From Oceanospirillales bacterium (GTDB taxonomy: Bacteria; Pseudomonadota; Gammaproteobacteria; Xanthomonadales; SZUA-36): a DNA stretch of 40,406 nucleotides. How positions within the stretch are numbered: position 1 is the first letter of the stretch; the number at the start of each line of letters is the position of its first letter. Made by a program: the position numbers and the translations under genes. This document shows, piece after piece, positions 11,264-35,425 of the stretch. The notes below the pieces were generated by a model. That model did no database searches. It worked only from the letters and a program-made list of their open reading frames with translations, and was not told the origin of the DNA. The DNA lies in contig QIKG01000097.1 of NCBI GenBank assembly GCA_003232965.1, positions 1 through 40,406 of the forward strand, written 5' to 3'.

Positions 11264-11959
11264 TCAGTTTTTAATAAATTGCTTATAGGCACTAACAACT
11301 TCCTCAGTCTCACCAATCATCTTGATTTTTCCTTGATCTAGCCATAGTGCGCGCTCACAAAGTTTTAGTATCTGATTCATGGAATGAGAAACCAGAACAA
11401 CCGTTTGTTTTGAGTTAATTTTATCCAGCATGGCCTTATTAGCTTTCAGCTTAAATTTACCATCACCTACACCGAGAACTTCGTCAATCAGCAAAAGCTC
11501 TGATCTCATTTTCAGCGCCACTGAAAACCCAAGCCGGGCACGCATGCCGCTTGAGTAGGTTTTAATCGGATTGTCAATAAAATCTTCGAGCTCTGAAAAC
11601 TCAATAATTTCATCAAGCATGGCAAGCACTTCTCGTTTACGGGCTCCCAAAAACATGCCACTAATAATCGCATTGTCCCTACCGGACAGCTCAGGATCAA
11701 AGCCTAAGGCTAAAGACAGTAGGGCAACCTGCTTGCAGTGCCAGCTAACTGTGCCGCTATCGACCTCATAAATATTGGCCAACACCCTTAACAAAGTAGA
11801 TTTACCACAACCATTAGAGCCCAAAACACCCAGTGTTTCACCTCTTTTTATGGTAAAACTCACATCCTCAAGGGCTGCAAAATAATCATGCCGAAAAAAG
11901 GAACGGCGGGTTCTGTATTGAACCCCAACATTATGCAATTCCATCACATTATTGTTCAC
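11264..11959 (-). CDS. wzt: polysaccharide/O-antigen export ABC transporter ATP-binding protein (Wzt/KpsT-like, NBD only)
   Basis: Walker A GSNGCGKST, signature YSSGMRARLGF and Walker B LLLIDEVL are present. It is only 231 aa, so it has no C-terminal carbohydrate-binding extension. The GTG start overlaps the wzm stop (GTGA). Confidence 0.85.
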   Translation of the reverse strand: MNNNVMELHNVGVQYRTRRSFFRHDYFAALEDVSFTIKRGETLGVLGSNGCGKSTLLRVLANIYEVDSGTVSWHCKQVALLSLALGFDPELSGRDNAIISGMFLGARKREVLAMLDEIIEFSELEDFIDNPIKTYSSGMRARLGFSVALKMRSELLLIDEVLGVGDGKFKLKANKAMLDKINSKQTVVLVSHSMNQILKLCERALWLDQGKIKMIGETEEVVSAYKQFIKN

Positions 11960-12732
11960 TGTGCTATCAACCGCGCATAATTAGTTTCTGTTTTTCGGTA
12001 ATACCATGTCATAGCGATAATTAAAACCAAACTACCAAGGCAAATCAAACCCAGTGCAGACCAGTCAGGGAGAACATTATCCATTAGCACCTGTCGATAG
12101 TTTTTAATTAGGTTAGCTATAGGGTTCATCAAAAATAGGCGCTGATGATCCGGGTGAATAACATCTGTATAACTATAAAATATTCCTGAGCCTAGCATCA
12201 GGGCCATTAATCCCGTAGAAACCAAATATCGAAAATCAGGAATATAGGGCGTCACTGCCGCCACCAACATCGCAACCGCAAAAGTTAACAAAAACTGAGT
12301 TAATATCACAAAAATTATACTAAGCCAGACCCAGGAAATATCAAGCCCATAGAGATACAAAAAACCAAACATAAACGCAAACACCACTGTTTGCTTGAAA
12401 GCATCCTGAAATACAACCAATAGCGGAAAGAAAGGCATTGGAATAGACACTTGGTTAATCAGACCGCGACCTGCAGTGATCGAGCCAGTCGCATTGCCAA
12501 TGCTACGGGAAAACCACGAAAAAGGGATTCTTCCACAGATCAGAAAAATTAAAAAATTTGATGTCCTTGTTTCCAGAAAAACACCGAAAACCAGATAGAG
12601 TACCGCCACCATCAAGGCAGGCTCCAATAACCACCAAATATAACTAAGGTAGGTTTTTGAGGCCTCAGATTTTAAATTGAACACCAACTTGGTGAAGAAC
12701 ACCTCAACGAGGTGTGCTCTAGATATAAACAT
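11956..12732 (-). CDS. wzm: polysaccharide/O-antigen export ABC-2 permease (Wzm/KpsM-like)
   Basis: 258-aa protein with about six hydrophobic spans, immediately upstream of and overlapping the ATPase gene. The N-terminus YLSYIWWLLEPALMV is typical of the ABC-2 family. Confidence 0.85.
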   Translation of the reverse strand: MFISRAHLVEVFFTKLVFNLKSEASKTYLSYIWWLLEPALMVAVLYLVFGVFLETRTSNFLIFLICGRIPFSWFSRSIGNATGSITAGRGLINQVSIPMPFFPLLVVFQDAFKQTVVFAFMFGFLYLYGLDISWVWLSIIFVILTQFLLTFAVAMLVAAVTPYIPDFRYLVSTGLMALMLGSGIFYSYTDVIHPDHQRLFLMNPIANLIKNYRQVLMDNVLPDWSALGLICLGSLVLIIAMTWYYRKTETNYARLIAQ

Positions 12733-15680: not shown

Positions 15681-16826
15681 ATGCGCGTTCTAATACTTGG
15701 GGGTGATGGTTATCTGGGCTGGCCCACCGCAATGCACTTTTCAGCCAAAGGCCACGAAGTTGCCGTGGTTGATAATTACCTGAGGCGCAACATTGCGCGC
15801 GAAACCGACAGCGGAACCCTCTACCCCACGCCTAACCTGCACGAGCGTGCAGAAATATGGGAAGATCATTCCGGTAAAAATATTTCTGTTCATATTGGTG
15901 ACCTGTGCGACTGGAATTTTATTAATTCCCTATTTGCCGAATTTAAACCCGACACCATTATTCATTACGCCGAACAACCTTCTGCTCCCTATTCAATGTT
16001 AAGTACAGCCGCAGCCCGGCTGACTCTCTCAAACAATATTGGGGTCACCGGCAATGTTGTGCTGGCGATGAAAGAACACTGCCCTGATGCTCACCTCATC
16101 AAACTGGGCACAATGGGCGAATATGGCACCCCCAATATTGATATAGAAGAAGGCTGGCTTGAAGTTGAACACAAAGGCCGCTCCCAAAAATTTCTCTACC
16201 CCCGCCAGGCAGGCAGTTTGTACCACACCACCAAAGTAATGGACACCGATCTGCTTTGGTTTTATGTGCGTACCTGGGGATTACGAGTAACCGACCTTAT
16301 GCAAGGCCCGGTATATGGCATCTTTACGGATGAAAATACCCACGACGACCGCTTGTTGCCCTGTTTTGCCTATGATGAGATATTTGGCACAGTTATCAAT
16401 CGCTTTGTTGTACAAGCCGTTGCCGGTTACCCACTAACAGTATATGGCAAAGGAGGCCAAACGCGGGGTTACCTCAATCTGAAAGACACCCTGCAATGCC
16501 TTTTACTTGCAGCAGAAAACCCAGCTGATAGCGGTGAAATGAAAATTTACAATCAACTAACTGAAACATTCTCGGTGAATGAAATTGCCGACCATGTGCA
16601 GCGTGTTGGTAAGCAGTTTGGGCTGGATGTACAAATAAAAAGCATAGAAAACCCGAGAAAAGAGTTGGAAGAACATTACTACAACCCGGCACACACCGGA
16701 CTGCTAGAGCTTGGGCTAAAACCAAACTATCTCACAGACGAGGCGCTTGGAGAAATCATCCAAAAAGTCATTCAATATAAAGATGACATTGTGCAAGACC
16801 GTATTTTCCGTGGTGTTAAGTGGTGA
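15681..16826 (+). CDS. sqdB: UDP-sulfoquinovose synthase
   Basis: Resembles SQD1/SqdB end to end (from memory). Shared motifs: MRVLILGGDGYLGWPTA, EQPSAPYSM, KLGTMGEYGTPNIDIEEG, YHTTK, LTVYGKGGQTRGYL, FSVNE and EEHYYNP. A GAGGAG ribosome-binding site precedes the ATG. Confidence 0.9.
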   Translation: MRVLILGGDGYLGWPTAMHFSAKGHEVAVVDNYLRRNIARETDSGTLYPTPNLHERAEIWEDHSGKNISVHIGDLCDWNFINSLFAEFKPDTIIHYAEQPSAPYSMLSTAAARLTLSNNIGVTGNVVLAMKEHCPDAHLIKLGTMGEYGTPNIDIEEGWLEVEHKGRSQKFLYPRQAGSLYHTTKVMDTDLLWFYVRTWGLRVTDLMQGPVYGIFTDENTHDDRLLPCFAYDEIFGTVINRFVVQAVAGYPLTVYGKGGQTRGYLNLKDTLQCLLLAAENPADSGEMKIYNQLTETFSVNEIADHVQRVGKQFGLDVQIKSIENPRKELEEHYYNPAHTGLLELGLKPNYLTDEALGEIIQKVIQYKDDIVQDRIFRGVKW

Positions 16827-17812
16827 GTAGTAAAAAATGGCTTATCACCGGAGGCTGTGGCTTTATTGGTACATCGCTAATACAACAACTACTGAAAAAC
16901 GATGCGCATACCGACATCCGAATACTGGATAACTTGTCGGTAGGTTCCGAGGAAGACCTTGCTGAAGTGGCTGAATTTAATAAAATAAGCCACCCCGATG
17001 CCCCACCTGAAGGTGTTGAGTTACTGGTTGGCGACATAACAAACGCACAAGACTGCCTAGATGCAAGCAAAGGTATCGATATTATTGTGCACCTTGCAGC
17101 CAATACCGGTGTTGGGCCTTCCGTTGAAGATCCCGAAGGGGATATGCGGGCAAATGTTATCGGCATTTTCAATATGCTGGAGGCTGCGCGGACAAATGCT
17201 GTCAATAAATTCATTTTTGCATCATCCGGCGCACCCATTGGAGAACTAAAAAACCCTCCCATACATGAGGAACTGGCAGCCCACCCAGTTTCACCTTATG
17301 GTGCAAGCAAGCTGGCGGGTGAAGGGTATTGTTCCGCCTATTACCACTCCTTTGGTATCAACACTATTGCCTTGCGGTTTGGTAATGTTTACGGGCCCAG
17401 GAGCAAACACAAAGCCAGCGTTGTTGCCAAGTTCATTAAACAGGCAATAAACGGTGAGACCTGTGAAATTTATGGTACGGGTCTGCAGACCAGGGATTTT
17501 ATTTATATACTGGATCTCGTAGATGCCATCATCAAATCCGCTCAGGTAGATATCGGTGGCGAGGTTTTCCAAATTGCCAGCAGCAAAGAGCGCACAGTCA
17601 ATGAAATCGCAAAAATTGTAGAACAAGAGCTAAAACATCATGGGACGAACCTAAAACTGAAATATGGAGAAGCCAGACCCGGCGATGTCATGAGAAATTT
17701 TTCTGATACAACCAAAGCAAAAAAAATCTTAGGTTGGCATGCGATAACAAATATCAATTATGGGATAAATAAAACAATTGAAAATTTGATAAAAAATCTT
17801 TATCCTAAATAG
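16820..17812 (+). CDS. NAD-dependent sugar-nucleotide epimerase (GalE/WbpP-like extended SDR)
   Basis: Motifs WLITGGCGFIGTSL, SPYGASKLAGE and LRFGNVYGP. The GTG starts at 16820/16823 overlap the sqdB stop codon (16824-16826). Confidence 0.8.
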   Translation: MVSSKKWLITGGCGFIGTSLIQQLLKNDAHTDIRILDNLSVGSEEDLAEVAEFNKISHPDAPPEGVELLVGDITNAQDCLDASKGIDIIVHLAANTGVGPSVEDPEGDMRANVIGIFNMLEAARTNAVNKFIFASSGAPIGELKNPPIHEELAAHPVSPYGASKLAGEGYCSAYYHSFGINTIALRFGNVYGPRSKHKASVVAKFIKQAINGETCEIYGTGLQTRDFIYILDLVDAIIKSAQVDIGGEVFQIASSKERTVNEIAKIVEQELKHHGTNLKLKYGEARPGDVMRNFSDTTKAKKILGWHAITNINYGINKTIENLIKNLYPK

Positions 17813-17863
17813 CTTAAATAAAATTAGCTAATCACACATATATATTATAAAAGGTAGCGAAAC

Positions 17864-19684
17864 ATGAAGTATTCATCAGACGGCGCTAGTATGAATCTTG
17901 CTGCTGCCCCTTATTCAGGTGCATTTTTTAAAAACGTTCATTTCTGGACACCACCAGTATCAACCATAAAACCTAGGAAGAAAAAACCTAACTCCTCTCT
18001 ACGAATGGCTGGGATTGTAAGCAAAAGATTATATGAAGGCCTAAAATATGAGGGCAAGTTATTCCTACTAACACCAAATAACTGGGGCGAGATTTTGCAG
18101 TATGGAAAGCTCGACTTACTTATTGTCGAGTCATGTTGGGAAACTGCAACTGGTGATTGGTATCTGTCACAAGTTACCATTAATGAACAAACAGCACTTT
18201 TAGTAAAATTAATACGGTTGGCTAAAAAACTTTCTATACCATGCGTCTTCTGGAATACTAAAGATCATCTATACCACAGTCATTATGAAGACTTTGCAAA
18301 ACAATTCGATTATATTTTTTGTGCTGATCCTAATGTTGTTGAGTCATTACGAAAACAGCACATAAAAGCAAATATACTCCTTCCCGCAATCCAGCCTGCA
18401 CTCCATAATGCTTTTAGAGAACATGGGGATACCAACGAATTTGAACTCGGTATCCTATTTGATGGCTGGGTAGATCTGATACGCCATTCGGAAAAGCTGC
18501 AAGTACTAAGCATATTGAAAAAATATGGGTTAGCAATAATTGAGTCTAAAGGACGACTGTTACGAGGGAAAATAGATGAACTCCCAGAGTATTCCAGTTC
18601 AATTCTCGGTTGTGTGACAAATGAAATAAGAAGAGTCTGTCTGAAATACGCAAAAACTGCGTTAACATTTGATGTGAGTACTTTTAGTAGCACAGAGCAA
18701 CAATGGAGAGCTCTTGAAATGGCGGGTTTTCGCCTACCGGTGCTGTACAGGGGAAAGTTACCAGATGGTGATATACGGAAAAATATCGTAGATGAGCAAA
18801 TGACAGATAAGGCCCTGATACAAAGGCTTAATCATTTTAAAAACAATGATTTAGATAGGAAAAAAATCGGACACCTTGCTTGGCGTGAGGTCTACAGTAA
18901 CCATACCTTTTCCCATCGCTTACAGTCTATCTGCATGGAGCTAGGGGTTTTTCATGATTGGATTGAGTTTCCTGCAATTAGCATGATTACACCTACCTTT
19001 CGTGTAGAACTGCTAACACGTTGCATCGAGACATTTGAAAAGCAGTCATACCCAAATAAAGATTTAGTTCTTGTCATTAATAGCAATAGACAAGACTTAC
19101 CAGGAGTTGGTGACCTAGTTTCTGACAAAGAGGACATTCAAGTAATACAGATGCCACAAGAGTGTTTCGTGGGTGGTTGCTTGAATATAGGGAATGCTAT
19201 AGCAAAAGGAGAATACTGTCTAAGAGTTGATGATGATGACTTCTATGGTAAATATTGTATTTCTGATATTTCACTTCATTTAAAATCAATAGATATAGAC
19301 TTATTCGGCAAACCGACTCCTTACTTTTTTTTTGAGGGTGACGAATGTGTGTATGAACGACCATTCAGGGTGCCTGATCTGACTATCATTCCGCCAAATG
19401 AACTCGAAGACTGGACCACACATGTTGCTGGTAACCTACTAGGTGGCAAGAGAGAATTTCTTCTTTCCACAGGTTACCCAGATAACGCTTTCGCAGCTGC
19501 CGATAGTAGCTTCTTATATTCTTTGAGTGAAAAAGAGTTTAATTACTGTTGTTTGGATAGTGCTAATATGGTCATTTATCGAGGTTTGAATTTACAGAGC
19601 CATACTTGGAGGCTACCTAAGCATCGTATTCTTGATAATGCAACCGCGCTTGATCAAGAAACACCAAGCGATATGATGTATTAA
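17864..19684 (+). CDS. bifunctional glycosyltransferase (CgeB/DUF3880-like N-domain plus GT2 C-domain)
   Basis: The N-domain has LDLLIVESCWETATGDWYLSQV..IPCVFWNTKDHLYHSHYEDFAKQFDYIFCAD, a CgeB-like GT pattern (from memory). The C-domain has ISMITPTFRVELLTRCIETFEKQSYPNKDLVLVINSN and RVDDDDFYG, typical of GT2. Confidence 0.7.
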   Translation: MKYSSDGASMNLAAAPYSGAFFKNVHFWTPPVSTIKPRKKKPNSSLRMAGIVSKRLYEGLKYEGKLFLLTPNNWGEILQYGKLDLLIVESCWETATGDWYLSQVTINEQTALLVKLIRLAKKLSIPCVFWNTKDHLYHSHYEDFAKQFDYIFCADPNVVESLRKQHIKANILLPAIQPALHNAFREHGDTNEFELGILFDGWVDLIRHSEKLQVLSILKKYGLAIIESKGRLLRGKIDELPEYSSSILGCVTNEIRRVCLKYAKTALTFDVSTFSSTEQQWRALEMAGFRLPVLYRGKLPDGDIRKNIVDEQMTDKALIQRLNHFKNNDLDRKKIGHLAWREVYSNHTFSHRLQSICMELGVFHDWIEFPAISMITPTFRVELLTRCIETFEKQSYPNKDLVLVINSNRQDLPGVGDLVSDKEDIQVIQMPQECFVGGCLNIGNAIAKGEYCLRVDDDDFYGKYCISDISLHLKSIDIDLFGKPTPYFFFEGDECVYERPFRVPDLTIIPPNELEDWTTHVAGNLLGGKREFLLSTGYPDNAFAAADSSFLYSLSEKEFNYCCLDSANMVIYRGLNLQSHTWRLPKHRILDNATALDQETPSDMMY

Positions 19685-19705
19685 ATGTGACAAATTACTT
19701 ATAAA

Positions 19706-20821
19706 ATGAAAATTATATACATAACTAGGGCAGCCTTTGGTTTGTTAGGTGGCGCAGACAGCTATCTTATACCTACATATGCAAATAAAAAGTGCGATGT
19801 TACGGTCCTATCAAACTTCATACCCCATTCTAAAGAGAAAGTTGTTTTTAGTTGCCCAGATCTCGAAATTCATGATGTATATTCCCGCAATACTACAGAA
19901 AGAGTTTTGAAGGTCTTAAATCATATATATAAAATAAAGCCGGATATTATACATATCTTCCACGGGCCTGATTGCTTAAGATACCCATATTTGCTACGAG
20001 GGTTAACCCCAAATGTTAAATGGGTATTAGATTTTCGATCCCCGCCTGTAACAAAAAACCGTACAGAACTTAACAAAGTGTTGTGGCGCTACTTTTTATG
20101 TCAATTTTATTATGACCAAATCCTGACTCACTCAAAGTTAACAATTAAGGATAATTTGCCTTTTCGTTTTAAAAGATTTATCGAGCTACCCCTAGGGGTT
20201 GAGTTAGCAAAAATTCCATTTGCAAATATCGGCAAACTAAAGCCTGTGAAGTTTGTATATATTGGAAGTGTAACAAAATCACGTCAACTTTTTTTACTGG
20301 TCGAATCATTTGCAAAATTCGCAGCCAACACTGAAGCAAGAGTTACTTTAGATATAATTGGTGATGGGAATGCAGTTGGTCCAATCAATGAACTAATATC
20401 TTCTAAGAAAATTAATAACCATGTGCAATTAAAAGGGTTTTTACCTCAACATGAAATTTATAAAATCATGCAAAATTATGATGTTGGAATAGCGTATGTA
20501 CCTTATGATAAATTTACAAGAGCACCATCCTTAAAATCCTTGGAATATGCTGCAGCAGGCTTACCTGTTCTAGCTTCTGATACTAAAGGACATAAAGACT
20601 TTGTTAATCGGTTTGGTTTTAAATTCGATCTTTTTAAAAACTCATCTAACGGGATCATAGATGCTTTTGAATGCTTTCTTAAAGATGGTGTATCACACAC
20701 TAAAATTAACAATAATCTTAAAGTAGTTAAAACCTTTGACTGGGAAAATCTTATTGAGAATATTCTTATACCAACATATACGAAATTATTGAAAACTCAC
20801 CATAACCTAACAAAGAAGTGA
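19706..20821 (+). CDS. glycosyltransferase family 4
   Basis: FVYIGSVTKSRQL and LEYAAAGLPVLASDTKGHKDFV form a GT4 C-terminal Rossmann/EX7E-like region. Confidence 0.8.
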   Translation: MKIIYITRAAFGLLGGADSYLIPTYANKKCDVTVLSNFIPHSKEKVVFSCPDLEIHDVYSRNTTERVLKVLNHIYKIKPDIIHIFHGPDCLRYPYLLRGLTPNVKWVLDFRSPPVTKNRTELNKVLWRYFLCQFYYDQILTHSKLTIKDNLPFRFKRFIELPLGVELAKIPFANIGKLKPVKFVYIGSVTKSRQLFLLVESFAKFAANTEARVTLDIIGDGNAVGPINELISSKKINNHVQLKGFLPQHEIYKIMQNYDVGIAYVPYDKFTRAPSLKSLEYAAAGLPVLASDTKGHKDFVNRFGFKFDLFKNSSNGIIDAFECFLKDGVSHTKINNNLKVVKTFDWENLIENILIPTYTKLLKTHHNLTKK

Positions 20822-20911
20822 TATCCTCCCAGCAACCATTAGCCCAGAGCAGGAACAGGTCATGGTCCCTATTTTTGAAATAGGTTAATAATCAGGGGAA
20901 TACAGATACAG

Positions 20912-21062
20912 ATAATGGTAAGTTTAATAGCAAATGGAGCGCAGTATTTAAAGACGTTAAAAAAACTAAATTACAATCAATAAACCTAAATATGAGCTTG
21001 ATAAATCACGATATGAGAACCACAAATTAGACCTACAAGCGAAAACGAGGCTAAAGAATTAG
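20912..21062 (+). repeat. decayed partial duplicate of the 5' part of the downstream coiled-coil ORF
   Basis: 20932-20940 equals 21121-21129 (AAATGGAGC). 20994-21030 matches 21205-21241 at 32 of 37 nt (GAGCTTGA..ATGAGAACCACAAATTAG). The offsets are 189 and 211 nt, so indels break the frame, and the copy carries several stops. Confidence 0.6.
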
Positions 21063-21081
21063 AAAGCCCTTAAAGTCTCGA

Positions 21082-21720
21082 TTGAAATCACTAAAGACAG
21101 AAAATGGCAACCGGTATAAAAAATGGAGCAGAGTGGTGAAAGAGATTAAAGAAACAGATTTAGAAAAAGCACAAATCCAATTGCAATCAAGAGTACTTAA
21201 AAAAGAGCTTGAGGAATATCGAGATGAGAACCACAAATTAGTCAAATATACAGAGGACTTGTCAAGCTCTTTAAAAAATATAGTCAAAGAATATAAATAC
21301 GAATACTTACTATTAGTAGAACAGTCTGATCGGGTTACATTTGACAATCAGAGATTGACTGAGAAACTAAATAATAGACTGCATGAAATATCTGAACTCC
21401 ACGTTTTGCTTGAAAACACTACAGTAGCATCTCAGTCCTTTCAAAATACCTCTACTATACGAATAAAAAAGATTGCTAAATTACAACAAAACCAACGTGA
21501 GTTAATCAGCAAGATCAAAACCTTACAATCTAAAAATGGAAACAAAGAAAATAGAATTATTCAAAAAGAAAAAGCAATCTTACAATTACAAACTTCATCA
21601 TCCATAAGGATTGGGCAAACATTTGTACAAGCTCTAAGTCAACCTGGGAAGAAAACAATTTTCTTCCCATACTATTTTCTTAAAGCCGTTTTTGAGGCAG
21701 CTTTTGTACATGAAAGGTAA
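21082..21720 (+). CDS. coiled-coil protein of unknown function with a hydrophobic/amphipathic C-terminal tail
   Basis: 212-aa Lys/Glu/Gln-rich heptad-like sequence with a TTG start (the start is uncertain; GTG at 21133 is an alternative). The tail is SSSIRIGQTFVQALSQPGKKTIFFPYYFLKAVF. No family was recognised. Confidence 0.45.
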   Translation: MKSLKTENGNRYKKWSRVVKEIKETDLEKAQIQLQSRVLKKELEEYRDENHKLVKYTEDLSSSLKNIVKEYKYEYLLLVEQSDRVTFDNQRLTEKLNNRLHEISELHVLLENTTVASQSFQNTSTIRIKKIAKLQQNQRELISKIKTLQSKNGNKENRIIQKEKAILQLQTSSSIRIGQTFVQALSQPGKKTIFFPYYFLKAVFEAAFVHER

Positions 21721-21883
21721 GCTAAGCATCTTTGCAGTACCTATTCCCCATTAGTTGTATGATTGATAGAGCTGTAATTCAACCACAGGTCAGATTAATA
21801 CCTAGGAACCCAACACGCTGTCAAGATGGTTGATAGTTTGACTAGGTAATCACAGACATAGGATATTAACGGAAGTTAAATTA

Positions 21884-23569
21884 ATGAAAAGCATGGCAAA
21901 TAGAAAAGCAATTATTGTCATTGGGTCCGGTCGCAGCGGGACCTCTCTGGTAATGCAAGTTTTAAACTACTTAGGGGTTAGCCCCCTGGGGAAATTGCTC
22001 AAAGGAGATGTTAGCAATCCAAAAGGATTTTTCGAAGATACACGAATTCTTGAAATTCATAGGAGGCTCCTTAAATCTATCCAGCCACATACAAGTTTAC
22101 CGCTTTTGCCAGGTTGGTTAAGCAGCCCTGAAGCTGCGGAAGCTAAAGCAGCTTTAATAGGACATATCCATTCCAAAATTGATAATAAACAAACATTTGC
22201 TGTAAAAGACCCGCGTACATCTCTGCTGATTCCCCTCTGGCGTGAAGTATTAGTAAGTTTCAGTATTGAGCCTGTTTTTGTGATGAGTTATCGCGATCCC
22301 ACTATGGTATTTGAGTCCATGCAAAAATACAATAGTAAACCAGATGATTGGGGTCAGGGTTTATGGGATACACGCATTGTACACTCTGTCGTTGATACAG
22401 ATTGCAAATTCTTACCCATTAATTATGACCATTGGTTTGATTCCCCCACTGAAGTCATTTTAGCTCTTGCGAAAGCATGTGGCATTCGTCAGAACGCCAA
22501 AGTTAATGCCTTAATACAACAGCCAGACCTGATTATTAAATCTGATCTTAAACGCTCATTAAACAGCAGTGTTTATCAGCAAAAAGTTCCCAGTCATTCA
22601 CAAAAAATGTATGCATTAATACAAGCCTTTCAAAAAAACAAAGACTACTGCAAGGACTTATTAAATTATTGTGTTTATTTCAAAGAGTTTTATGATTCCT
22701 TAGTGTATGTTTCTTCCAGCTTTTCTAAACTTGAGAGTGAAAGAAACGAGGGGATAAAGCCTAGCCAACTGCTTGAGCAAATTGTCGCAGAGAGAGAAGC
22801 CATATTAACCACCCAAAAAGCAAGAAAACTGGAACACAAAGCTTTTCTTGCCAGTCTGGAAGAATTGCGTAAAAATCAGGGCAGCCTCAAAACTGAAATA
22901 CAGGGCGTTAGCCATCAGGGTCAGTCGCTCGATGGCATTGCCACTTTATTGCAACAACGCCTTGAGCTTGAAAAAACCGAAGGCCACAAAGTCAGCCAAC
23001 TGCTTGAGCAAATTGTTGCAGACAAAGAAGCCATCTTAACCACTCAAAAACAACGGGCACTGGAACACGAAGCTTTTCTTGCCAGCTTGGAAGAATTGCG
23101 TAAAAACCAGGGCAGCTTAAAAGCAGAAATTCAAAGCCTCTCACATCAAGGTAGCTCACTAAATAAAATCATTAATCTGCTTCAGAAACGCTTTGAGCAT
23201 GATAGAGAGGAAGAGCACAAATCCAGTCAGTTACTTGAGCAACTTTTAAACGATAAAGATGTCTCATTGAATGCCCTCAACCAAAGAACCGAAGAGCAAA
23301 GCAAAATGATCTCAACGCTACAAACAGGGAATATTAACAAGGACAGTGAGATATCCTTTCTACAGAAAGAGATAGAACGACTCAATAAACAAAATACTGG
23401 GATTAAAACTAAGAACATCAACTATCGTGAACGAAATAAAAATTATCGTGAAAAAGAGAAATATCACAGTGCGCGAATGGCTGAGCTTCGTTATCGCTTA
23501 ACCACCACACAAAAAAAGTTATCTGCGCTCGAAAACCAGTCCGTAATTAATAAAATCTTTAGAAAATGA
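21884..23569 (+). CDS. sulfotransferase domain fused to a long C-terminal coiled coil
   Basis: The N-domain has a 5'-PSB-like IIVIGSGRSGTSLV and a 3'-PB-like SYRDPTMVFESM. From residue 294 onward it is continuous Lys/Glu/Gln/Leu-rich heptad-like sequence, including two 77-aa repeats. Confidence 0.75.
   Translation: MKSMANRKAIIVIGSGRSGTSLVMQVLNYLGVSPLGKLLKGDVSNPKGFFEDTRILEIHRRLLKSIQPHTSLPLLPGWLSSPEAAEAKAALIGHIHSKIDNKQTFAVKDPRTSLLIPLWREVLVSFSIEPVFVMSYRDPTMVFESMQKYNSKPDDWGQGLWDTRIVHSVVDTDCKFLPINYDHWFDSPTEVILALAKACGIRQNAKVNALIQQPDLIIKSDLKRSLNSSVYQQKVPSHSQKMYALIQAFQKNKDYCKDLLNYCVYFKEFYDSLVYVSSSFSKLESERNEGIKPSQLLEQIVAEREAILTTQKARKLEHKAFLASLEELRKNQGSLKTEIQGVSHQGQSLDGIATLLQQRLELEKTEGHKVSQLLEQIVADKEAILTTQKQRALEHEAFLASLEELRKNQGSLKAEIQSLSHQGSSLNKIINLLQKRFEHDREEEHKSSQLLEQLLNDKDVSLNALNQRTEEQSKMISTLQTGNINKDSEISFLQKEIERLNKQNTGIKTKNINYRERNKNYREKEKYHSARMAELRYRLTTTQKKLSALENQSVINKIFRK
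22763..23455 (+). repeat. in-frame tandem repeat, period 231 nt (77 codons): two well-conserved units plus a diverged third
   Basis: Units start at 22763, 22994 and 23225. Units 1 and 2 begin AGCCAACTGCTTGAGCAAATTGT and are close to identical by eye over the first ~130 nt. Unit 3 begins AGTCAGTTACTTGAGCAACTT. Confidence 0.85.
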
Positions 23570-29063: not shown

Positions 29064-32000
29064 ATGCATCAAACGATGGTTGCTGTTGTTCTAAACACAC
29101 TGGACTGCCCATCTTTGGGCACGCTCAGCCGTGCCGAAGGGCTTTTAACTTCTCTTAACAGTATAATCAGCCAAGAAACCACCACTTTAATTGAAATTAT
29201 TATAGTTACAGCGCCGGATTCCACTGGTGAAGCACCTTATCAGAATATTTTGGAGAAAAACCCCTGGATTCCGTCCGTACGGTTTTTATATTGTACTTCA
29301 GACCAGCAGGCGCAGGCTGCCTACACCCAGAGTATTGCCGATTACTTTATATTTCTTTCTGTGGGTGATGAACTACTCCCCGGGGCTGTTAAGTTGTTGC
29401 TCGATCATATTACAGAATCAGAGCACCTCAGCTGTTATGGTGCCTGCCGTTGGTCTGATAATACAGCGTCTTGGTCACATCCATCCGTTGACCAGTTTTT
29501 TGAAATGCCCGCCGTTACCACTATAACGGAGCTTTTACAGGCCAGCACTCTTGCTAAGACCTCGCTAGGGTTATTGCACCGATCACTTTTGCAGGAAAAA
29601 ACAGACCAAACCTCTCCCAAAGCCATTATTGTTAAAGACTATATCTGTATTCGCCAAGCGCCGGGTGAAATCAGCTTCAGCCCCATATACCCCTACCCCA
29701 AGCCAATATACCAAAAGGCCATATTACCTGCGCAAATGCCTGTGAGTGAACTTACGACGAGGGAGGGTGGAAGGCGCTCTGCTGTCTGGCTATTTGGAGA
29801 GCGTGCCGGGGAAAGTGCAGAAGATAATGCCTGGGCCTTATTTAAATATTGTGTTGATAACTGCCCCTATATCGAAAGTTATTATGTTCTAAAACATGAA
29901 AAAGTAATTTCACCTGACCCCAAATATCAAAGCCGGATACTCATTAAAGGCAGCCCTGAATGGAGTAAACACATAGAGCGAGCAAGCCATATGTGCTTTA
30001 CTGATACGGCTGCCGATATTCTTGTATCGTCACTTGATGCTTTAAATTATAACGATGTTGATTTTATATATCTCACCCATGGCTATCTGGCATACAGCCC
30101 CGGGGTATACCAACGCGGGCATCCATATTTTAACCGGGTTATTTGTACCAGCGCGATGGATGTTGACGCTGCTTCACGGTTCTGGGGGTTTCCCAAATCC
30201 AGCTTTATCCAAACTGGCTTGCCGCGATGGGATAACTTAAGAGATAGCTCCGCCGGGCACAAAGAAATCTTAATCCTACCCACCTGGAGAAAAACATTTG
30301 ACTCATCCCACTGGAGTGCCAGCGAGGCCTTAGCTGAAGATGACATCCACAAATTTAAGACCAGCGCCTACTTTAAGCATTTTAATGCTCTTCTGAAATC
30401 TGCAGAATTGAATAAATTGCTACTCTCACATGATGCCCGGGTTACTTTTAAGTTGCATTTCCGGCTGGAAAAATACCTGCCTTTATTTGAGAAAACCGTT
30501 GATTCAAAGATTAGAATTTCTACCCGGGCAAACGATAACCGCAATATTAAAGCGCTGCTAGAAGATGCCAGCATGTTGATAACTGATTATTCCAGTGTAA
30601 TGTTTGATATGGGTCAAATGGAAAAGCCGGTTATTTGCTATCAGTTTGACAAGGCCGCTATGCTCGGCGAGCGTAAGATTGATGCCTTTGCGCTCGCCGA
30701 TACCCGAATGTTTACGGATATGTGTTCTACACAAGTGGCTGTAATTCATCAACTTGAAGAATATTTACTCTCCGGCTTTACCATTCCCGAACATAAATTA
30801 CGTCGACTCAACCACACCCTACCATTTCGCGACCGGGGAAATTGCAAGCGGGTGGTGAATAAAATCCAACAACTGCAAAATAAACCCGCTCACGGGAGCG
30901 CCAAAGTAGCAAAAATAATCAAACAGCCCGATATAACTTCTTATTTAAAACGACTGGATTGGGTTAAAACTGATGAATCAACAAAAATTGGGTATTTGCT
31001 GAACATCCCCATCTCAAAACCGACCGCACATATAGCCATAAACCCGGATAACTGGAAAAAAATTATCAGTGCCGGGGATATCGATATTTTGCTCATTGAG
31101 CCACACTTAAACGCCCGTAGCCAATGGGCACCTGTTTTCTTTAATGCTGGAGGTTTGTTAGCGTTTCTGCATGAAATCAGCGACTTTGCGCAACAACATG
31201 GGGTAGCAAGTGTTTTATTAGAGCCGCACTACCATCTGTTCTTTGATAACCTACTACCCTTAAACGACCACTTTGACCACTATGTGCCATTAGCTACCGC
31301 TACGGATATATCACCTGCCTATAGTATCTCTGTGATTATCCCTGCCTATAATTGTGAACACTATATTAGTCATTGTATAGATTCTATTCTCAGGCAAAGC
31401 TACACCGGTAGTGTAGAGTTGGTTATTGTTGATGATGGCAGCACAGACACCACCTGGGATGTTATTACAAGTTATTCCCACGTACATTCCAATGTAACAG
31501 CTATCAGGCAATATAACGCTAAACAGGGAATGGCCCGGAACCGGGGGCTTGATGCGGCTAGGGGTCAATTTGTCACCTTTGTAGATGCCGATGATCTTCT
31601 ACCGGTCAATTGTCTTGCTGATTTGTTCCATGAAATCAGTTTATCGGGTGCCGATATTTCCATTGGGCTTGTCGCTTCTACAGACGAAAAGGGAAACACA
31701 CAGCAAATAAACCAGTCTTACTACCATTATTCAAAAGCGCCGCGGAGTTTTACTCCGGCAAGCTGGCCACATGTTTTTTACGACCCCAGTTGTGTCGGCA
31801 AGCTAATTTCAAGACGCTTTCTGCTTGAACACAAGATATATTTCCCACAGAGCTATCATGAAGATCAGGTTTTCAATTTCAAACTGTTTACCAGTGCCAC
31901 AACAATTTGTAAAACAAATGCAGTGGTGTATCTGTATATTGCCAGACCAGCGGCTAGTCCGGCACTTTCGGGAACACAAACATTTACGGCTGAAAAATTC

Positions 32001-32783
32001 CGGCAAATACTCATCGCCGCGCAGTTGGCCATATCAATTCTGGATACATCGGGCCTGCCGAGGCGAGTTAAAAACCGTGCCCTTGGGTTTTTAGTCCTTC
32101 GCTACGACAGGTTTCTCTGGAAACAACAATCCATACCAACAAACAAAGAAGCTTCAGAAGTACAGCTACAGGCTTTTGATTTGCTGGCTGCTTTGCTCAA
32201 GAGGGTACCGGATGAAACTATCTGGAAACAAGCAAAACACCTTCCATTGGCCTTGCTGCTGCTTAAAAGGCAGCAATTTCCGCTGGTTGCCCAAGCTTTG
32301 AAAGGCAACAAGAGTGCGTCCATCGAGTATTTATACCGCGAAGGCACGATTCCTGAAAAAATTCTGGGCTTATTAAAAGCCGGTGGCCGGCTAAGTACTC
32401 GCTACAATTACTACAAAGCAATGCCATTGCTTAGCGAGAAGAGTACAATTATCACTCAAATGGATTATGGCTATAGACTTGGATCCATTTTTGTTGATAT
32501 TTTAAAACGGCCCATCTTAATATTTCTTCTGCCTTTTCGCTTGATACTGCTGGCTTTTGATATGCTTAGCAAAAGAGGTCGCGAGAAACAAAATAAACTT
32601 GAGAAGGAAATAATTAATAACCATAATCAACAGCAGCTCATTGAGCGTTCTATGATTTTAGAAAAATCAGCGGCGCATCGCCTTGGTGTGGCAATACTTG
32701 AGACATTTTCAATATCACCCGGTAAAATTATTAAACTACCCGGTAAAATCAAACAAATATATATACAAACTCGCTCACTCTAG
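29064..32783 (+). CDS. 1239-aa multidomain polymerase-like enzyme: degenerate GT2-like N-domain, TagB/TagF-type CDP-glycerol glycerophosphotransferase domain, canonical GT2 domain, C-terminal hydrophobic/amphipathic tail
   Basis: TagF-type motifs: WLFGERAGESAEDNAWALFKYC, ILILPTWR (about 30272-30290) and MLITDYSSVMFDM (about 30575-30610). GT2 motifs: ISVIIPAYNCEHYISHCIDSILRQSY..VELVIVDDGSTDTT..VTFVDADDLL (from about 31321). The tail has ILIFLLPFRLILLAFDML and AAHRLGVAILETFSISPGKIIKLP. Confidence 0.8.
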   Translation: MHQTMVAVVLNTLDCPSLGTLSRAEGLLTSLNSIISQETTTLIEIIIVTAPDSTGEAPYQNILEKNPWIPSVRFLYCTSDQQAQAAYTQSIADYFIFLSVGDELLPGAVKLLLDHITESEHLSCYGACRWSDNTASWSHPSVDQFFEMPAVTTITELLQASTLAKTSLGLLHRSLLQEKTDQTSPKAIIVKDYICIRQAPGEISFSPIYPYPKPIYQKAILPAQMPVSELTTREGGRRSAVWLFGERAGESAEDNAWALFKYCVDNCPYIESYYVLKHEKVISPDPKYQSRILIKGSPEWSKHIERASHMCFTDTAADILVSSLDALNYNDVDFIYLTHGYLAYSPGVYQRGHPYFNRVICTSAMDVDAASRFWGFPKSSFIQTGLPRWDNLRDSSAGHKEILILPTWRKTFDSSHWSASEALAEDDIHKFKTSAYFKHFNALLKSAELNKLLLSHDARVTFKLHFRLEKYLPLFEKTVDSKIRISTRANDNRNIKALLEDASMLITDYSSVMFDMGQMEKPVICYQFDKAAMLGERKIDAFALADTRMFTDMCSTQVAVIHQLEEYLLSGFTIPEHKLRRLNHTLPFRDRGNCKRVVNKIQQLQNKPAHGSAKVAKIIKQPDITSYLKRLDWVKTDESTKIGYLLNIPISKPTAHIAINPDNWKKIISAGDIDILLIEPHLNARSQWAPVFFNAGGLLAFLHEISDFAQQHGVASVLLEPHYHLFFDNLLPLNDHFDHYVPLATATDISPAYSISVIIPAYNCEHYISHCIDSILRQSYTGSVELVIVDDGSTDTTWDVITSYSHVHSNVTAIRQYNAKQGMARNRGLDAARGQFVTFVDADDLLPVNCLADLFHEISLSGADISIGLVASTDEKGNTQQINQSYYHYSKAPRSFTPASWPHVFYDPSCVGKLISRRFLLEHKIYFPQSYHEDQVFNFKLFTSATTICKTNAVVYLYIARPAASPALSGTQTFTAEKFRQILIAAQLAISILDTSGLPRRVKNRALGFLVLRYDRFLWKQQSIPTNKEASEVQLQAFDLLAALLKRVPDETIWKQAKHLPLALLLLKRQQFPLVAQALKGNKSASIEYLYREGTIPEKILGLLKAGGRLSTRYNYYKAMPLLSEKSTIITQMDYGYRLGSIFVDILKRPILIFLLPFRLILLAFDMLSKRGREKQNKLEKEIINNHNQQQLIERSMILEKSAAHRLGVAILETFSISPGKIIKLPGKIKQIYIQTRSL

Positions 32784-32795: not shown

Positions 32796-33494
32796 ATGAT
32801 TCTCAGAAACAATACGAAGTTTGTACTAGTTGGCCTTGGTCGTTGCGGTTCAAATCTTTTGAAATTTGGTCTCAGGCAAAACGCCCAAATTTTTATGGCC
32901 GGGGAATATTTCAACAAACATAGCCACCCCGAATCCCTTCAGCAGGATGGCAAAGCCAGGGCCCAAGCCTTTTTTGAAGGCAGCCGGCGAAATAGCGTAC
33001 GGGCCGTCGGATTCAAGATATTTCTACATCATGGTCGCAAACATGGTGTTAATACCGTTTGGAAGTATTTACGGAAAAATAGAGAAATAAAAATACTTCA
33101 TTTATCCCGGGAGAACACATTTAAGCGGTTATTAAGTCTGGAAGTCGCAAATGTTCGCGGCCAGTGGCTGAATGATGGCCTTGGTACTGATGATATCGTT
33201 ATCACACATTCCAATGAGTGGTGGCAAGAAAAAATAGAGAGCGATTTAAAAAAAGAAAGTGCACTGACAAAAACTTTCCACAAGCATGACCGCCTTCACA
33301 TAAGCTATGAAAACCTGATCCAGGACTGGGATCAGCTGACTACCGACATCCAGAGTTTTGTTGGTGCTCAAGCCACTTCTGTCGAAAAGTCATTACGCAA
33401 GCAAGAATATATGCCGCTTTCACAAAGGTGCCCGAACCTAGCAGAATTACAAACTTTTTTCCAAAACAGTCCTTATCGCTGGATGTTTGAATAA
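32796..33494 (+). CDS. sulfotransferase (NodH/Stf0-like)
   Basis: FVLVGLGRCGSNLLKF is a P-loop-like 5'-PSB motif and KILHLSRENTFKRLLSLEVA is 3'-PB-like. Size (232 aa) and pattern fit NodH/Stf0-type enzymes (from memory). Confidence 0.6.
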   Translation: MILRNNTKFVLVGLGRCGSNLLKFGLRQNAQIFMAGEYFNKHSHPESLQQDGKARAQAFFEGSRRNSVRAVGFKIFLHHGRKHGVNTVWKYLRKNREIKILHLSRENTFKRLLSLEVANVRGQWLNDGLGTDDIVITHSNEWWQEKIESDLKKESALTKTFHKHDRLHISYENLIQDWDQLTTDIQSFVGAQATSVEKSLRKQEYMPLSQRCPNLAELQTFFQNSPYRWMFE

Positions 33495-34405
33495 TGTTAA
33501 ATATCGCCATTATCATTTTAAACTGGGAAAATTCGCCCGCTACACTCGAATGTGCACGCTCTGTACTAGATGATATGGATTTGAGTTCTGAGCATGTCCA
33601 TAGTCATTTGTGGATAGTTGATAATGGCTCAAGCGACCAATCTGCTGATGTTATAAAAAACTGGGTTAATACTAATGTGGCTGATAACCTTGTTACAGTG
33701 ATTGAAAACCCTGAAAATGCTGGTTTTTCTGCAGGTATGAATAAAGGCATTTTTGCTGCTGCTAAAAACGCCCAAGTTGATTATTTTTGGTTGCTTAATA
33801 ACGACCTTACAGTTGAAACAGGCTCGCTAATACAGCTTTCTCAAGCTATTATGAAAGACCCCGCTGTGGCAATATGGGGCCCTACGGTAATCGATGCCGC
33901 AACCTTCAAAGTGCAGTGTGCTGGCGGCTGTATTTACTATCGCTGGCTGGGTAAGGAAAAGCGTGCATTCGCCGGACTGAGGACAAACCAACTGCCACAT
34001 ATAGAGCCACCTGCACTGGACTATATTTATGGTGCGGCTATGTTAATAAAAAAGGAGCTTTTAGATCGACTGCACGGATTAAACGAAGACTATTTTCTCT
34101 ATTACGAAGAACTGGACCTCGTAGAGCACTTAAACACTAGTGAAACACTGGGGTGGTGCCAGGATGCCAGAGTGGTACACCAAGGTGGCGATTCTTCCCC
34201 CGACAAGAGAGCTAAGGTATTTGCCGCCTACCACGCCGCTTTAAGTGCATTCAAATATACCTGGCGCTACCACCCATTGTGCTTGCCATCCGTCATTCTA
34301 TTTCGCGTCTTTGGTCTGCCGCTGTTCGCCTTGAGGTATAAGAACCCAAGGCTGGCGCTGGCACCCTTCCGGGCACTACGGGACTTTTTACGGCCGGCTG
34401 CATAA
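33494..34405 (+). CDS. glycosyltransferase family 2
   Basis: IAIIILNWENSPATLECARSV, WIVDNGSSDQS and FWLLNNDLTVE fit the GT2 rhamnosyltransferase-like architecture. The start overlaps the upstream stop (TAATG). Confidence 0.8.
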   Translation: MLNIAIIILNWENSPATLECARSVLDDMDLSSEHVHSHLWIVDNGSSDQSADVIKNWVNTNVADNLVTVIENPENAGFSAGMNKGIFAAAKNAQVDYFWLLNNDLTVETGSLIQLSQAIMKDPAVAIWGPTVIDAATFKVQCAGGCIYYRWLGKEKRAFAGLRTNQLPHIEPPALDYIYGAAMLIKKELLDRLHGLNEDYFLYYEELDLVEHLNTSETLGWCQDARVVHQGGDSSPDKRAKVFAAYHAALSAFKYTWRYHPLCLPSVILFRVFGLPLFALRYKNPRLALAPFRALRDFLRPAA

Positions 34406-34408
34406 GCT

Positions 34409-35425
34409 TTACGGTTCTGGCTCAGCACCTCCACCACAGTGGAGAAATACCAAGTGCACATAAAGCACCCATCGCAAAACACCTTTGCGTAAGCCAAGCT
34501 GATGCGCTGTTTTAATTCTCTTATATGGACTTATTTCAGCTAAGTTCGCATACTTTTCAAGATAACCCAAAAGCTCAGGACTTTGAATATTCCGCAGTTT
34601 TAGACGAGTTGTGAGTTCCTTAGCCTGGTTAATGGTCTGACATAGCTCGTTCGACCCTTTTGTCCATGAACTTGCCCACTGTTTGTAATTTATTAGCAAG
34701 CGCCCAATGGAAGTAACACCTATTGTATTACCCGTGTGCTGCCTGTATTTAATCAGCTTTTCATCTATAAAAATCAATTTTCCACAAGCGGCAGCGGTTA
34801 AAGCCAACCACCAGTCATGCATAAGCGCTGTCTCAGGTATTGGGCTGGCAAGCTCTGCTAATTTCCTGTTTATTGCCATGCAGCACCCGGGGATATGATT
34901 GAGGCTTAATAAGCTATTCAGTTTAGTATTACCCCCTTCATTTAAACCCCTTTGAAAAGAGTAAGCCGTTTCAACAGGTTGCAGCTCCGAGTCAGTTAAT
35001 TCAATATTGCTGTAGATCAAACATGGACCATTTTCGGCAGCAAATTTATCATAAAATTGTTGGGTTTTAGTCGGCTCCCAATAGTCATCTTGATCGCTAA
35101 ACATAATCAATTGCGCCTTGGTTTCCAGGGCATGAACCAATAAACGAGCAAAACTTGCTCGGGGGCCTGTATTTACTGAATTAACAGACTCAATATGTTT
35201 AATTCGAGGGTCGGCGTGGCAATATTTATCAATTAGTGTCGTTGTCGTATCAACAGAGCCATCATCACGAATCAAAAGCAGCCATTGCTTGAAGGTTTGT
35301 GCCTGGATACTTTCTATTTGGCAGGCTAAATATTCGGCACCATTATAAGTGGATAGTAAAATACAAACCTCAGCCCTACCCATAGTTTTAGCAGGAACTT
35401 TAGGGATTTGTGGGTTGGCTGTCAT
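34409..35425 (-). CDS. glycosyltransferase family 2
   Basis: Motifs VCILLSTYNGAEYLACQIESIQAQTFKQWLLLIRDDGSVDTT and FSDQDDYW (DxD). An alternative start is at Met15 (35383). It is convergent with the preceding GT2, with only a 3-nt gap. Confidence 0.8.
   Translation of the reverse strand: MTANPQIPKVPAKTMGRAEVCILLSTYNGAEYLACQIESIQAQTFKQWLLLIRDDGSVDTTTTLIDKYCHADPRIKHIESVNSVNTGPRASFARLLVHALETKAQLIMFSDQDDYWEPTKTQQFYDKFAAENGPCLIYSNIELTDSELQPVETAYSFQRGLNEGGNTKLNSLLSLNHIPGCCMAINRKLAELASPIPETALMHDWWLALTAAACGKLIFIDEKLIKYRQHTGNTIGVTSIGRLLINYKQWASSWTKGSNELCQTINQAKELTTRLKLRNIQSPELLGYLEKYANLAEISPYKRIKTAHQLGLRKGVLRWVLYVHLVFLHCGGGAEPEP

Follow-up and report, generated by a model that had tools for sequence, protein, structure and literature searches.

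A large TagF-like multidomain protein in a gammaproteobacterial Wzm/Wzt locus most likely belongs with hexose-1-phosphate rather than polyol-phosphate transferases

What does a protein transfer when it joins a TagF-like domain to glycosyltransferase (GT) domains of family 2 (GT2) within a Gram-negative ATP-binding cassette (ABC) transporter locus, and into which kind of surface polymer? The question is raised by a gene of contig QIKG01000097.1 (Oceanospirillales bacterium, assembly GCA_003232965.1), whose positions 1 to 40,406 form the stretch of DNA analysed here, hereafter the window. A preliminary description of this DNA had read the gene product as a polyol-phosphate transferase fed by CDP-glycerol or CDP-ribitol (CDP, cytidine diphosphate) and acting as the polymerase of a phosphodiester-containing repeat. 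The general idea of a phosphodiester-repeat polymerase in an ABC-transporter locus is supported by our analysis. On the other hand, subgroup motifs, profile scores and phylogeny point away from polyol phosphate and towards the hexose-1-phosphate subgroup of TagF-like enzymes, and the glycerophosphotransferase reading of the gene is probably wrong.

The gene is real, with an uninterrupted reading frame and a family of full-length homologues that are 27-73% identical and each around 1165-1250 amino acids (aa) long. The copy in the public protein collection begins at the second ATG, 29076, giving a product of 1235 aa, and no clear Shine-Dalgarno sequence was seen upstream of either start candidate (29064 or 29076). 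The gene and the elements that bear on its donor are as follows.

29064..32783, plus strand: the whole gene, an open frame encoding 1239 aa, with about 19 full-length homologues.
29790..30866, plus strand: TagF-like GT-B domain (aa 243-601), most likely of the hexose-1-phosphate-transferase subtype, from PF04464, Foldseek, hidden Markov model (HMM) and tree evidence.
30078..30080, plus strand: His339, in the motif LTHG, equivalent to TagF His444 and Cps1B His587, the putative catalytic base; invariant, placed by alignments.
30456..30458, plus strand: His465, in the motif LHFR, equivalent to TagF His584 and Cps1B His717; invariant, placed by profile-to-PDB alignment.

A Pfam scan of the protein assigned aa 243-601 to PF04464 (Glyphos_transf; E 9e-23) and aa 756-920 to PF00535 (GT2; E 9e-36), and no Pfam family was found for the spacer at aa 602-755 or for the last 319 residues. 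The PF04464 match (E 8.8e-23 unrounded; 81 bits, the cut-off being 22) is near full-length, covering positions 17-365 of the 367 in the profile. Structural models were made with AlphaFold2 (AF2) from family alignments as two halves, residues 1-625 (predicted local distance difference test, pLDDT, 77.7; predicted template modelling score, pTM, 0.80) and residues 626-1235 (pLDDT 83.2, pTM 0.75). In Foldseek searches with the TagF-like domain, whose model shows the GT-B-like fold of two Rossmann domains, TagF (3l7i, E 1.8e-13), Cps3D (8qoy), TarL (8va1) and Bcs3 (8a0c) came out on top. Exactly two histidines of this domain, H339 and H465, are invariant in 15 homologues, as are the PTWR (LPTWR, aa 405-409) and TDYSS (ITDYSS, aa 506-511) motifs. 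H465 aligns to residue 584 of Staphylococcus epidermidis TagF in a profile-to-PDB alignment, and H339 to the His of LQHG in the relatives P0020 and P0052 and to the published QHG/WHG column. The suspicion that the TagF-like segment might lack its catalytic histidines is set aside because both are present and invariant. In the title of PDB entry 3L7M a TagF variant is given as 'H548A'; our alignment puts the conserved His at chain residue 584, and the figure in the title is probably a typographical slip.

The Gram-negative TagF-like capsule polymerases described so far fall into two groups (Litschko et al. 2018, PMC5974469). The GT-A/TagF-like enzymes CslB, Cps1B, Cps4B, Cps12B, Ccs2, Fcs2 and BtY31 use their TagF-like domain to transfer hexose-1-phosphate from uridine diphosphate (UDP)-sugars with release of uridine monophosphate (UMP), and they build poly(oligosaccharide phosphate), whereas the TagF-like/GT-B enzymes Cps3D, Cps7D, CszC and Escherichia coli K2 c3694 take CDP-glycerol as donor and transfer its glycerol phosphate. 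In Cps1B, polymer synthesis requires His587 and also His717 (PMC5974469). Comparison of the subgroup motifs with the published alignment (Fig. S5 of PMC5974469) gave the following differences between the window protein and the polyol-phosphate enzymes.

First His motif: IYLTHG in the window protein, with no 'TP.K.LG' after it; WHGTP.K.LG in the polyol-phosphate version.
PTWR context: ILILPTWRK in the window protein; YAPTWRG in the polyol-phosphate version.
Insert following PTWR: FKTSAYFKHFNALLKSAELNKLL in the window protein; none in the polyol-phosphate version.
Motif past TDYSS: VICYQFDK in the window protein; Y.YD..EY in the polyol-phosphate version.
C-terminal motif: PFRDRGNCKR in the window protein; DDG in the polyol-phosphate version.

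All of the hexose-phosphate signatures, namely (L)QHG, ILIxPTWR, the insert F..T.Y...W..LL.S..L, YQFDK and (F)RDxxNCxR, are thus found in the window protein except for a Q to T replacement in the first. The polyol-phosphate signatures WHGTPxKxLG and YAPTWRG are absent from it, the corresponding segments reading LTHGYLAY and ILILPTWRK. In addition, an HMM of the family's TagF domain was scored on the sequences printed in the supplement of PMC5974469. It gave 91-131 bits for six hexose-phosphate domains (Fcs2, Cps1B, BtY31, Ccs2, Cps4B and Cps12B) and 26-49 bits for five polyol-phosphate domains (CszC, Cps7D, c3694, Cps3D and TagF). A maximum-likelihood tree agreed with this division: its deepest split (support 100/100) has TagF, Cps3D, Cps7D, CszC and c3694 on one side, together with the PF04464 database proteins P0050, P0058, P0060 and P0088, and on the other side the hexose-phosphate domains, two database relatives and the family of the window protein. 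When genome contigs were scanned with the TagF-domain profile, the matches listed were 21-30% identical relatives, mostly from Firmicutes, and none of them belonged to the close family. Altogether, these comparisons indicate that the TagF-like domain most likely belongs with the hexose-1-phosphate-transferring subgroup of the CslB/Cps1B/Ccs2 type. They correct an annotation based on the family name: the name of PF04464 carries no implication of glycerol phosphate, and the donor class is predicted by the subgroup motifs.

The genes for donor supply were searched in four genomes carrying the family (G000, G085, G094 and G095, which include the Parahaliea aestuarii assembly GCA_008064635.1). No tagD-like gene or other cytidylyltransferase was found in the 40,406-nt window, as had been stated before, and the PF01467 matches of the window's own assembly, a 60% complete metagenome-assembled genome (MAG), sit on other contigs; these were ruled out as tagD, being CoaD and RibF. 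In the other three carrier genomes no protein reached the cut-off of TagD (TIGR01518), the best score being 59 bits against 165, for a 151-aa PF01467 protein in Halioglobus, and the only strong match in an IspD-family search was the housekeeping ispD. The proposed genome search for CDP-glycerol or CDP-ribitol synthesis genes therefore revealed no tagD or tarI in the four genomes. Cytidylyltransferase genes are also absent from three of the four loci that contain the family, the Halioglobus locus holding only a PF02348 gene of the CMP-sugar-synthetase type (CMP, cytidine monophosphate). Enzymes of UDP- and GDP-sugar (GDP, guanosine diphosphate) metabolism are plentiful in the window. The absence of tagD and tarI fits what would be predicted for a UDP-sugar-using enzyme and is awkward for a CDP-alditol enzyme; given the incompleteness of the genomes, it is not decisive. 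The PF02348 (CTP_transf_3) gene of Halioglobus adjoins genes for a 2-hydroxyacid dehydrogenase and a short-chain dehydrogenase/reductase (SDR) at 18058-20422 of that locus (L006), forming a possible activated-acid-sugar cassette that is absent in the other loci.

Beyond the TagF-like domain, the protein consists of four further modules: a degenerate GT-A, a small alpha/beta linker, an intact GT2, and a helical region with a hydrophobic/amphipathic tail.

29076..29705, plus strand: N-terminal degenerate GT-A (GT2-like) domain, aa ~5-214, from hhalign, profile matches and the AF2 alpha/beta fold.
30987..31286, plus strand: small alpha/beta linker domain, aa ~642-741, with an EPHLNA.S.WA..FF motif, from AF2 and BLASTP.
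31323..32210, plus strand: catalytic GT2 (GT-A) domain with a helical extension, aa ~754-1049, with VDDGSTD, VDADD (DxD) and HEDQ, matching PF00535.
32421..32780, plus strand: helical tail (aa 1120-1239) containing a hydrophobic stretch and a pair of (Y/H)RLG motifs; a putative membrane anchor or docking module.

The four-part anatomy given for this frame in the preliminary description was confirmed by Pfam, profile, BLASTP and hydropathy evidence, and every motif quoted there was located: IIIVTAPD (aa 45-52) and SVGDEL (aa 99-104) in the N-terminal domain, WLFGERAGESAEDNAW (aa 242-257), LPTWR and ITDYSSVMFD (aa 506-515) in the TagF-like part, DIDILLIEPHLNARSQW (aa 672-688) in the spacer, and IIPAYN (aa 758-763), VDDGSTD (aa 789-795) and VDADD (aa 840-844) in the GT2. 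The N-terminal 240 aa by itself gave a weak Pfam GT2 match (E 0.0017). The family profile of this domain matched the protein's own C-terminal GT2 with an hhalign probability of 98.3%, and it also matched TarP (6h1j, E 6e-10), K4CP and the N-terminal GT2-like region of S. epidermidis TagF. The view that this domain is degenerate, with SVGDEL in place of the DxD, was upheld: in the alignment to the C-terminal GT2, V-G-D-E occupies the DxD position, and the DDG motif for nucleotide binding is not kept across the family. Because of these two losses the N-terminal GT-A is probably inactive.

The linker shows a beta-alpha-beta pattern in the second AF2 half (pLDDT 80-94), and the noted likeness of the spacer to the N-terminus of open reading frame (ORF) 17864 could be reproduced in a pairwise comparison (BLASTP E 5e-5, 22% identity across 82 aa). 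The C-terminal GT2, described earlier as canonical, is intact. Judged by its sequence, it is an inverting glycosyltransferase of GT-A fold, with the PF00535 match, DxD, DDG and an ED region; the motifs VDDGSTD, VDADD and HEDQ are invariant in the homologues, as are residues D841, D843, D844, E933 and D934. Its matches among PDB sequences are GalT1/CgT (5hea, 1e-22), the chondroitin polymerase K4CP (2z86, 2.5e-20) and TarS (5tze), and its best Foldseek matches are TarS, CgT, TarP and RmlT (E 1e-16 to 1e-15).

The hydrophobic/amphipathic character ascribed to the tail was also borne out, with a hydrophobic stretch, PILIFLLPFRLILLAFDML, at aa 1146-1170 (Kyte-Doolittle mean up to 2.2 over aa 1151-1169) and six predicted helices in the second AF2 half. 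The tail is likely a monotopic membrane anchor. An exhaustive search with the last 120 residues returned only 14 representative clusters, which include the family itself and three proteins of ~460-490 aa from other metagenomes, with an N-terminal sulfotransferase domain and the tail at the C-terminus (P0097, P0098 and P0100). Four other clusters are a fragment of the family at a contig edge, a 368-aa protein without a Pfam family, and short proteins of 104 and 116 aa. The apparent stand-alone 'GT2 plus tail' protein P0094 was rejected as such, being a family member cut by the contig end. A scan of the window with the tail motif found only two copies, both within ORF 29064-32783; a weaker copy, SSSIRIGQTFVQALSQPGKK, spotted by eye, ends the coiled-coil ORF 21082 (21082-21720). 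The common tail suggests that the polymerase and a candidate terminator may share a way of docking at the membrane or transporter.

The locus that surrounds the gene was then compared with its counterparts, the transporter and the neighbouring GT2 genes being placed as follows.

11264..12732, minus strand: wzt (11264-11959, 230 aa, nucleotide-binding domain (NBD) only) and wzm (11956-12732), from Pfam ABC_tran and ABC2_membrane.
33494-34405, plus strand, and 34409-35425, minus strand: convergent pair of small GT2 genes encoding 303 and 338 aa, kept with the large gene.

All window ORFs were searched by tblastn against three homologous loci (L004, L005 from P. aestuarii and L006 from Halioglobus). 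The core kept in the four loci, including the window, consists of wzt, wzm, the large gene and the convergent GT2 pair, and the sulfotransferases, methyltransferase and O-acyltransferases around it vary between loci. Homologues of wzm-wzt lie directly upstream of the large gene in P. aestuarii and Halioglobus; in L099, a metagenomic fragment at a contig edge, wzt/wzm lie directly downstream of the homologue and convergent to it. The copies of the GT2 pair keep the same convergent order, with 38-44% identity in L005 and L006 and 94% in L004. In the Halioglobus stretch of 24 kb that was read, the large gene is the sole large multidomain GT. The hosts of the homologues are mostly marine Proteobacteria; those named comprise marine Gammaproteobacteria, namely a 'Xanthomonadales' MAG, Halioglobus and P. 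aestuarii, and the alphaproteobacterium Pukyongiella litopenaei. Of the 94 genomes in the taxonomic family of the window, 2 carry the gene, and it was absent from all 400 other genomes searched in the same order, a patchy distribution expected of a serotype-specific gene.

The best NCBIfam matches of Wzt are Wzt/RfbE and TagH, not KpsT; no KpsC/KpsS (PF05159) match was found in the four carrier genomes; and the window holds a waaL-like Wzy_C gene and a lipid A acyltransferase gene. Because of this Wzt/RfbE-TagH-type NBD, the lack of kpsC/kpsS, the waaL-like gene and the lipid A acyltransferase, the pathway is, as judged from its gene content, of the O-antigen type and based on undecaprenyl pyrophosphate (Und-PP), not a group-2 capsule pathway. 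The comparison with group-2 capsules drawn in the preliminary description therefore holds for the enzyme and fails for the pathway. Wzt has no C-terminal carbohydrate-binding module, and the locus nonetheless has several terminator-like genes; with an NBD-only Wzt, recognition of a cap at the chain end is unlikely to be required for export. No description of a PF04464 polymerase in a Wzm/Wzt pathway was met in limited full-text literature searches aimed at other questions.

On balance we favour a bifunctional polymerase that would make a poly(oligosaccharide phosphate) chain from UDP-sugars for export by Wzm/Wzt. Starting from the domain identity, the conserved catalytic residues, the subfamily placement, the conserved gene module and the absence of tagD, tarI and kpsCS, we infer the donor type, the alternation of the two activities, a polymerase rather than a single-addition role, and the membrane anchoring. 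The enzyme would be membrane-tethered and cytoplasmic and would act on an Und-PP-linked glycan. Its TagF-like GT-B domain would move hexose-1-phosphate from a UDP-sugar to the sugar at the growing end, releasing UMP; if TagF is a guide, His339 would serve as the base and His465 would act at the pyrophosphate. The C-terminal inverting GT2 (DxD 841-843, predicted to depend on Mg2+ or Mn2+) would attach a beta-linked sugar from a second nucleotide sugar, and alternating action of both domains would yield sugar units joined by anomeric phosphodiesters. CslB, Cps1B and Ccs2 do what would be the equivalent chemistry for group-2 capsules. The N-terminal GT-A, having lost its metal- and nucleotide-binding residues, may be a structural or acceptor-binding remnant, and the whole enzyme would be kept in place by its tail, at the membrane or the transporter. 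An adaptor on the lipid-linked primer (Und-PP) is probably made by the conserved pair of small GT2s. Wzm/Wzt would export the chain, and the locus-variable sulfo-, methyl- and acetyl-/acyl-transferases would decorate the product.

Several points weigh against this reading. The family forms its own clade (100/98) in an unresolved polytomy inside the hexose-phosphate side of the tree, so its donor specificity is extrapolated. Directly ahead of the first His stands an invariant Thr, where characterised hexose-phosphate enzymes have Q and glycerol-3-phosphate enzymes have W, and the published sequences behind the profile scores were machine-read from PDF text with some errors. The absence of donor genes rests on MAGs of 60% (G000) and 85% (G085) completeness plus a MAG and an assembly without stated completeness, and the carriers may have a non-canonical cytidylyltransferase. 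The best structural matches of the GT2, TarS, TarP and RmlT, glycosylate polyol-phosphate chains, which would also suit a polyol-phosphate enzyme. The other large GTs of the window, ORFs 12964 and 17864, could be the true polymerase. Finally, we know of no carrier whose product chemistry has been described.

The TagF-like domain could, as the preliminary description had it, be a glycerol- or ribitol-phosphate transferase with a CDP-alditol as donor. Together with the GT2 it would then produce either a teichoic-acid-like poly(glycosyl-polyol phosphate) or a poly(polyol phosphate) bearing glycosyl substituents. In favour of this are the name of the Pfam family, the full-length PF04464 match and the nearest solved structures, all of which are polyol-phosphate enzymes (TagF, TarL, Cps3D and Bcs3); among the structure matches, none is described in the consulted literature as a hexose-phosphate TagF-like enzyme. 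Furthermore, the GT2 fold is nearest to TarS, TarP and RmlT, which act on ribitol-phosphate polymers, and Wzt is almost as similar to TagH as to Wzt. Yet the subgroup motifs, the scores of 26-49 vs 91-131 bits and the 100/100 split set the domain apart from the characterised polyol-phosphate transferases, the 'WHGTP.K.LG' and 'YAPTWRG' signatures are missing, and the carrier genomes have no tagD (59 vs 165 bits) and only a housekeeping ispD, with three of the four loci devoid of a cytidylyltransferase and the Halioglobus locus holding only the PF02348 type. We consider polyol-phosphate transfer unlikely. The missing cytidylyltransferase would also be accounted for if the domain drew on a housekeeping CMP or CDP donor, such as CMP-Kdo (Kdo, 3-deoxy-D-manno-oct-2-ulosonic acid) or CDP-diacylglycerol, and added a Kdo-like or phosphatidyl unit. 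A conserved module without a dedicated cytidylyltransferase and the nearby CMP-sugar-synthetase-type gene (PF02348) in Halioglobus are compatible with this idea, which has no precedent in PF04464; its placement beside UDP-hexose-using enzymes explains the missing gene more simply, and such a donor seems highly improbable.

A different objection concerns the number of additions rather than the donor. With the same chemistry, the enzyme could make a single addition, be it an adaptor or 'transition' step, a branch, or a cap that ends the chain, and leave polymerisation to other GTs of the locus. PF04464 does include primases and transition transferases (TagB, TarF and Cps7A; PMC11666461), and the window has several further GTs, among them the large ORFs 12964 and 17864, besides candidate terminators. 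Against a single addition, the characterised two-domain enzymes with GT-A plus TagF-like domains are all polymerases, the large gene is the sole large multidomain GT in the Halioglobus stretch, where it lies beside wzm-wzt, and it is kept with the transporter while other GTs vary. Moreover, the 230-aa Wzt has no carbohydrate-binding module that could read a cap. This role therefore appears to us rather doubtful, and the alternating polymerase remains the reading that we carry into the comparison with known systems.

The enzyme most likely works like the GT-A/TagF-like capsule polymerases, namely CslB of Neisseria meningitidis L, Cps1B, Cps4B and Cps12B of Actinobacillus pleuropneumoniae, and Ccs2 and Fcs2 of Haemophilus influenzae c and f (PMC5974469), with the same TagF-like subtype and without three features of that group. 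Like them, it has a GT-A N-terminal to the TagF-like GT-B, the same sequence subtype with shared motifs and two catalytic histidines, a GT-A partner with a Mg2+-type DxD related to K4CP, coupling to an ABC-2 exporter, and poly(oligosaccharide phosphate) as the expected product class. Unlike them, its N-terminal GT-A is degenerate (VGDE at the DxD, DDG lost) and the active GT-A stands at the C-terminal side behind the alpha/beta linker. There is no Pfam match to a tetratricopeptide repeat (TPR), present in the majority of the group, in aa 921-1239, where the hydrophobic/amphipathic tail is found instead. THG replaces QHG, the gene has Wzm/Wzt surroundings that include a waaL-like gene and no kpsC/kpsS, and the hosts are free-living marine Proteobacteria. 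With S. epidermidis TagF (3L7I), TarL (8VA1), Cps3D (8QOY) and Bcs3 (8A0C) the protein shares the fold (Foldseek E 1e-13 to 1e-10), the two histidines, PTWR and TDYSS, and a GT2-like region is present at the N-terminus of S. epidermidis TagF too. These enzymes, in contrast, are polyol-phosphate transferases with WHGTP and YAPTWRG, and the polyol-phosphate domains score low on the family HMM and lie across the deepest split of the tree.

The C-terminal GT2 with its helical extension resembles TarS and TarP of Staphylococcus aureus, RmlT of Listeria monocytogenes and CgT/GalT1 (5HEA), with target-normalised TM-scores of 0.7-0.79 and an inverting GT-A with DxD; TarS, TarP, RmlT and CgT, unlike this GT2 fused to a phosphotransferase, stand alone, decorate wall teichoic acid and have trimerisation or C-terminal domains of their own. 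The multidomain cytoplasmic polymerases of the WbdA/WbdD and WbbB systems (E. coli O9a and Klebsiella pneumoniae O12) likewise act on Und-PP primers with Wzm/Wzt, show C-terminal amphipathic membrane association and are accompanied by separate coiled-coil terminators, for which our locus has candidates; unlike the window enzyme, they are pure glycosyltransferases (GT4, GT1, GT99) without a phosphotransferase domain. Bacillus subtilis GgaB combines GT2 and PF04464 domains, and the polymer of its system is exported by an ABC-2 transporter. As cited in PMC11081497, the GgaB system builds a sugar-1-phosphate polymer on an Und-PP linkage unit; its product is, unlike that of the window locus, a Gram-positive wall polymer.

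The architecture of the window protein is best called a new arrangement, in which a dead GT-A, a hexose-phosphate TagF-like domain, a linker, a live GT-A and a tail follow one another within a Wzm/Wzt O-antigen-type locus. To our knowledge, TagF-like multidomain polymerases have so far been known from the group-2 capsules of a few pathogens, and these enzymes serve as tools for the enzymatic synthesis of vaccine antigens. The family would extend them to an O-antigen-type Wzm/Wzt pathway of free-living marine bacteria, and would add a rearranged architecture, with the dead GT-A in front of the live one, and the replacement of the TPR domain by a membrane tail. It would thus widen the range of biotechnologically useful enzymes and predict an unusual marine glycan while breaking no rule. 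If the proposed chemistry is true, the locus would make a glycan bridged by phosphodiesters and probably sulfated, with a bearing on marine cell-surface chemistry and on phosphorus and sulfur economy. A wider and tentative proposal, in which we place little confidence, is that the family represents a route to sugar-phosphate (teichoic-acid-like) O-antigens of marine Proteobacteria that is coupled to Wzm/Wzt and independent of KpsC/S. In such a route the shared tail would dock both the polymerase and the coiled-coil sulfotransferase 'terminators' at the membrane or transporter, as parts of a single assembly line, and the product would be a sulfated phosphoglycan. We know of no O-antigen described as a sulfated phosphoglycan, although no systematic check was made.

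Some further observations concern the tail and the sulfur-related genes. The tail consensus, (Y/H)RLG...P...K..I..LP, is that of a rare module. In another locus, L100, the gene order at 819-9989 equals that of the window at 14620-23569: a CgeB-like+GT2 gene and a GT4 gene follow three dehydratase/epimerase genes. Next comes a single gene (8526-9989) for one of the three tail-bearing sulfotransferases named above (487 aa). The window has instead a sulfotransferase-coiled-coil ORF, 21884, without the tail, and the separate ORF 21082 with coiled coil and tail, an arrangement that may be a split or rearranged version of the L100 gene. Just downstream of the large gene, after a gap of 13 nt, lies a small sulfotransferase-like gene (32796-33494) with an ATGA overlap with the next GT2. 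Its counterpart in L004, the locus with the 73%-identical homologue, is called at 11252-11695 with 147 aa, of which the first 83 residues align, and this gene may be truncated. Finally, a cysH-type reductase gene for phosphoadenosine phosphosulfate or adenosine phosphosulfate (PAPS/APS) and an adjacent gene for a 305-314-aa SDR epimerase/dehydratase form a conserved pair (53% and 44% identity), located at 9616-11186 in the window and at 8408-10008 in the P. aestuarii locus (L005), where it lies directly upstream of the large gene and overlaps it.

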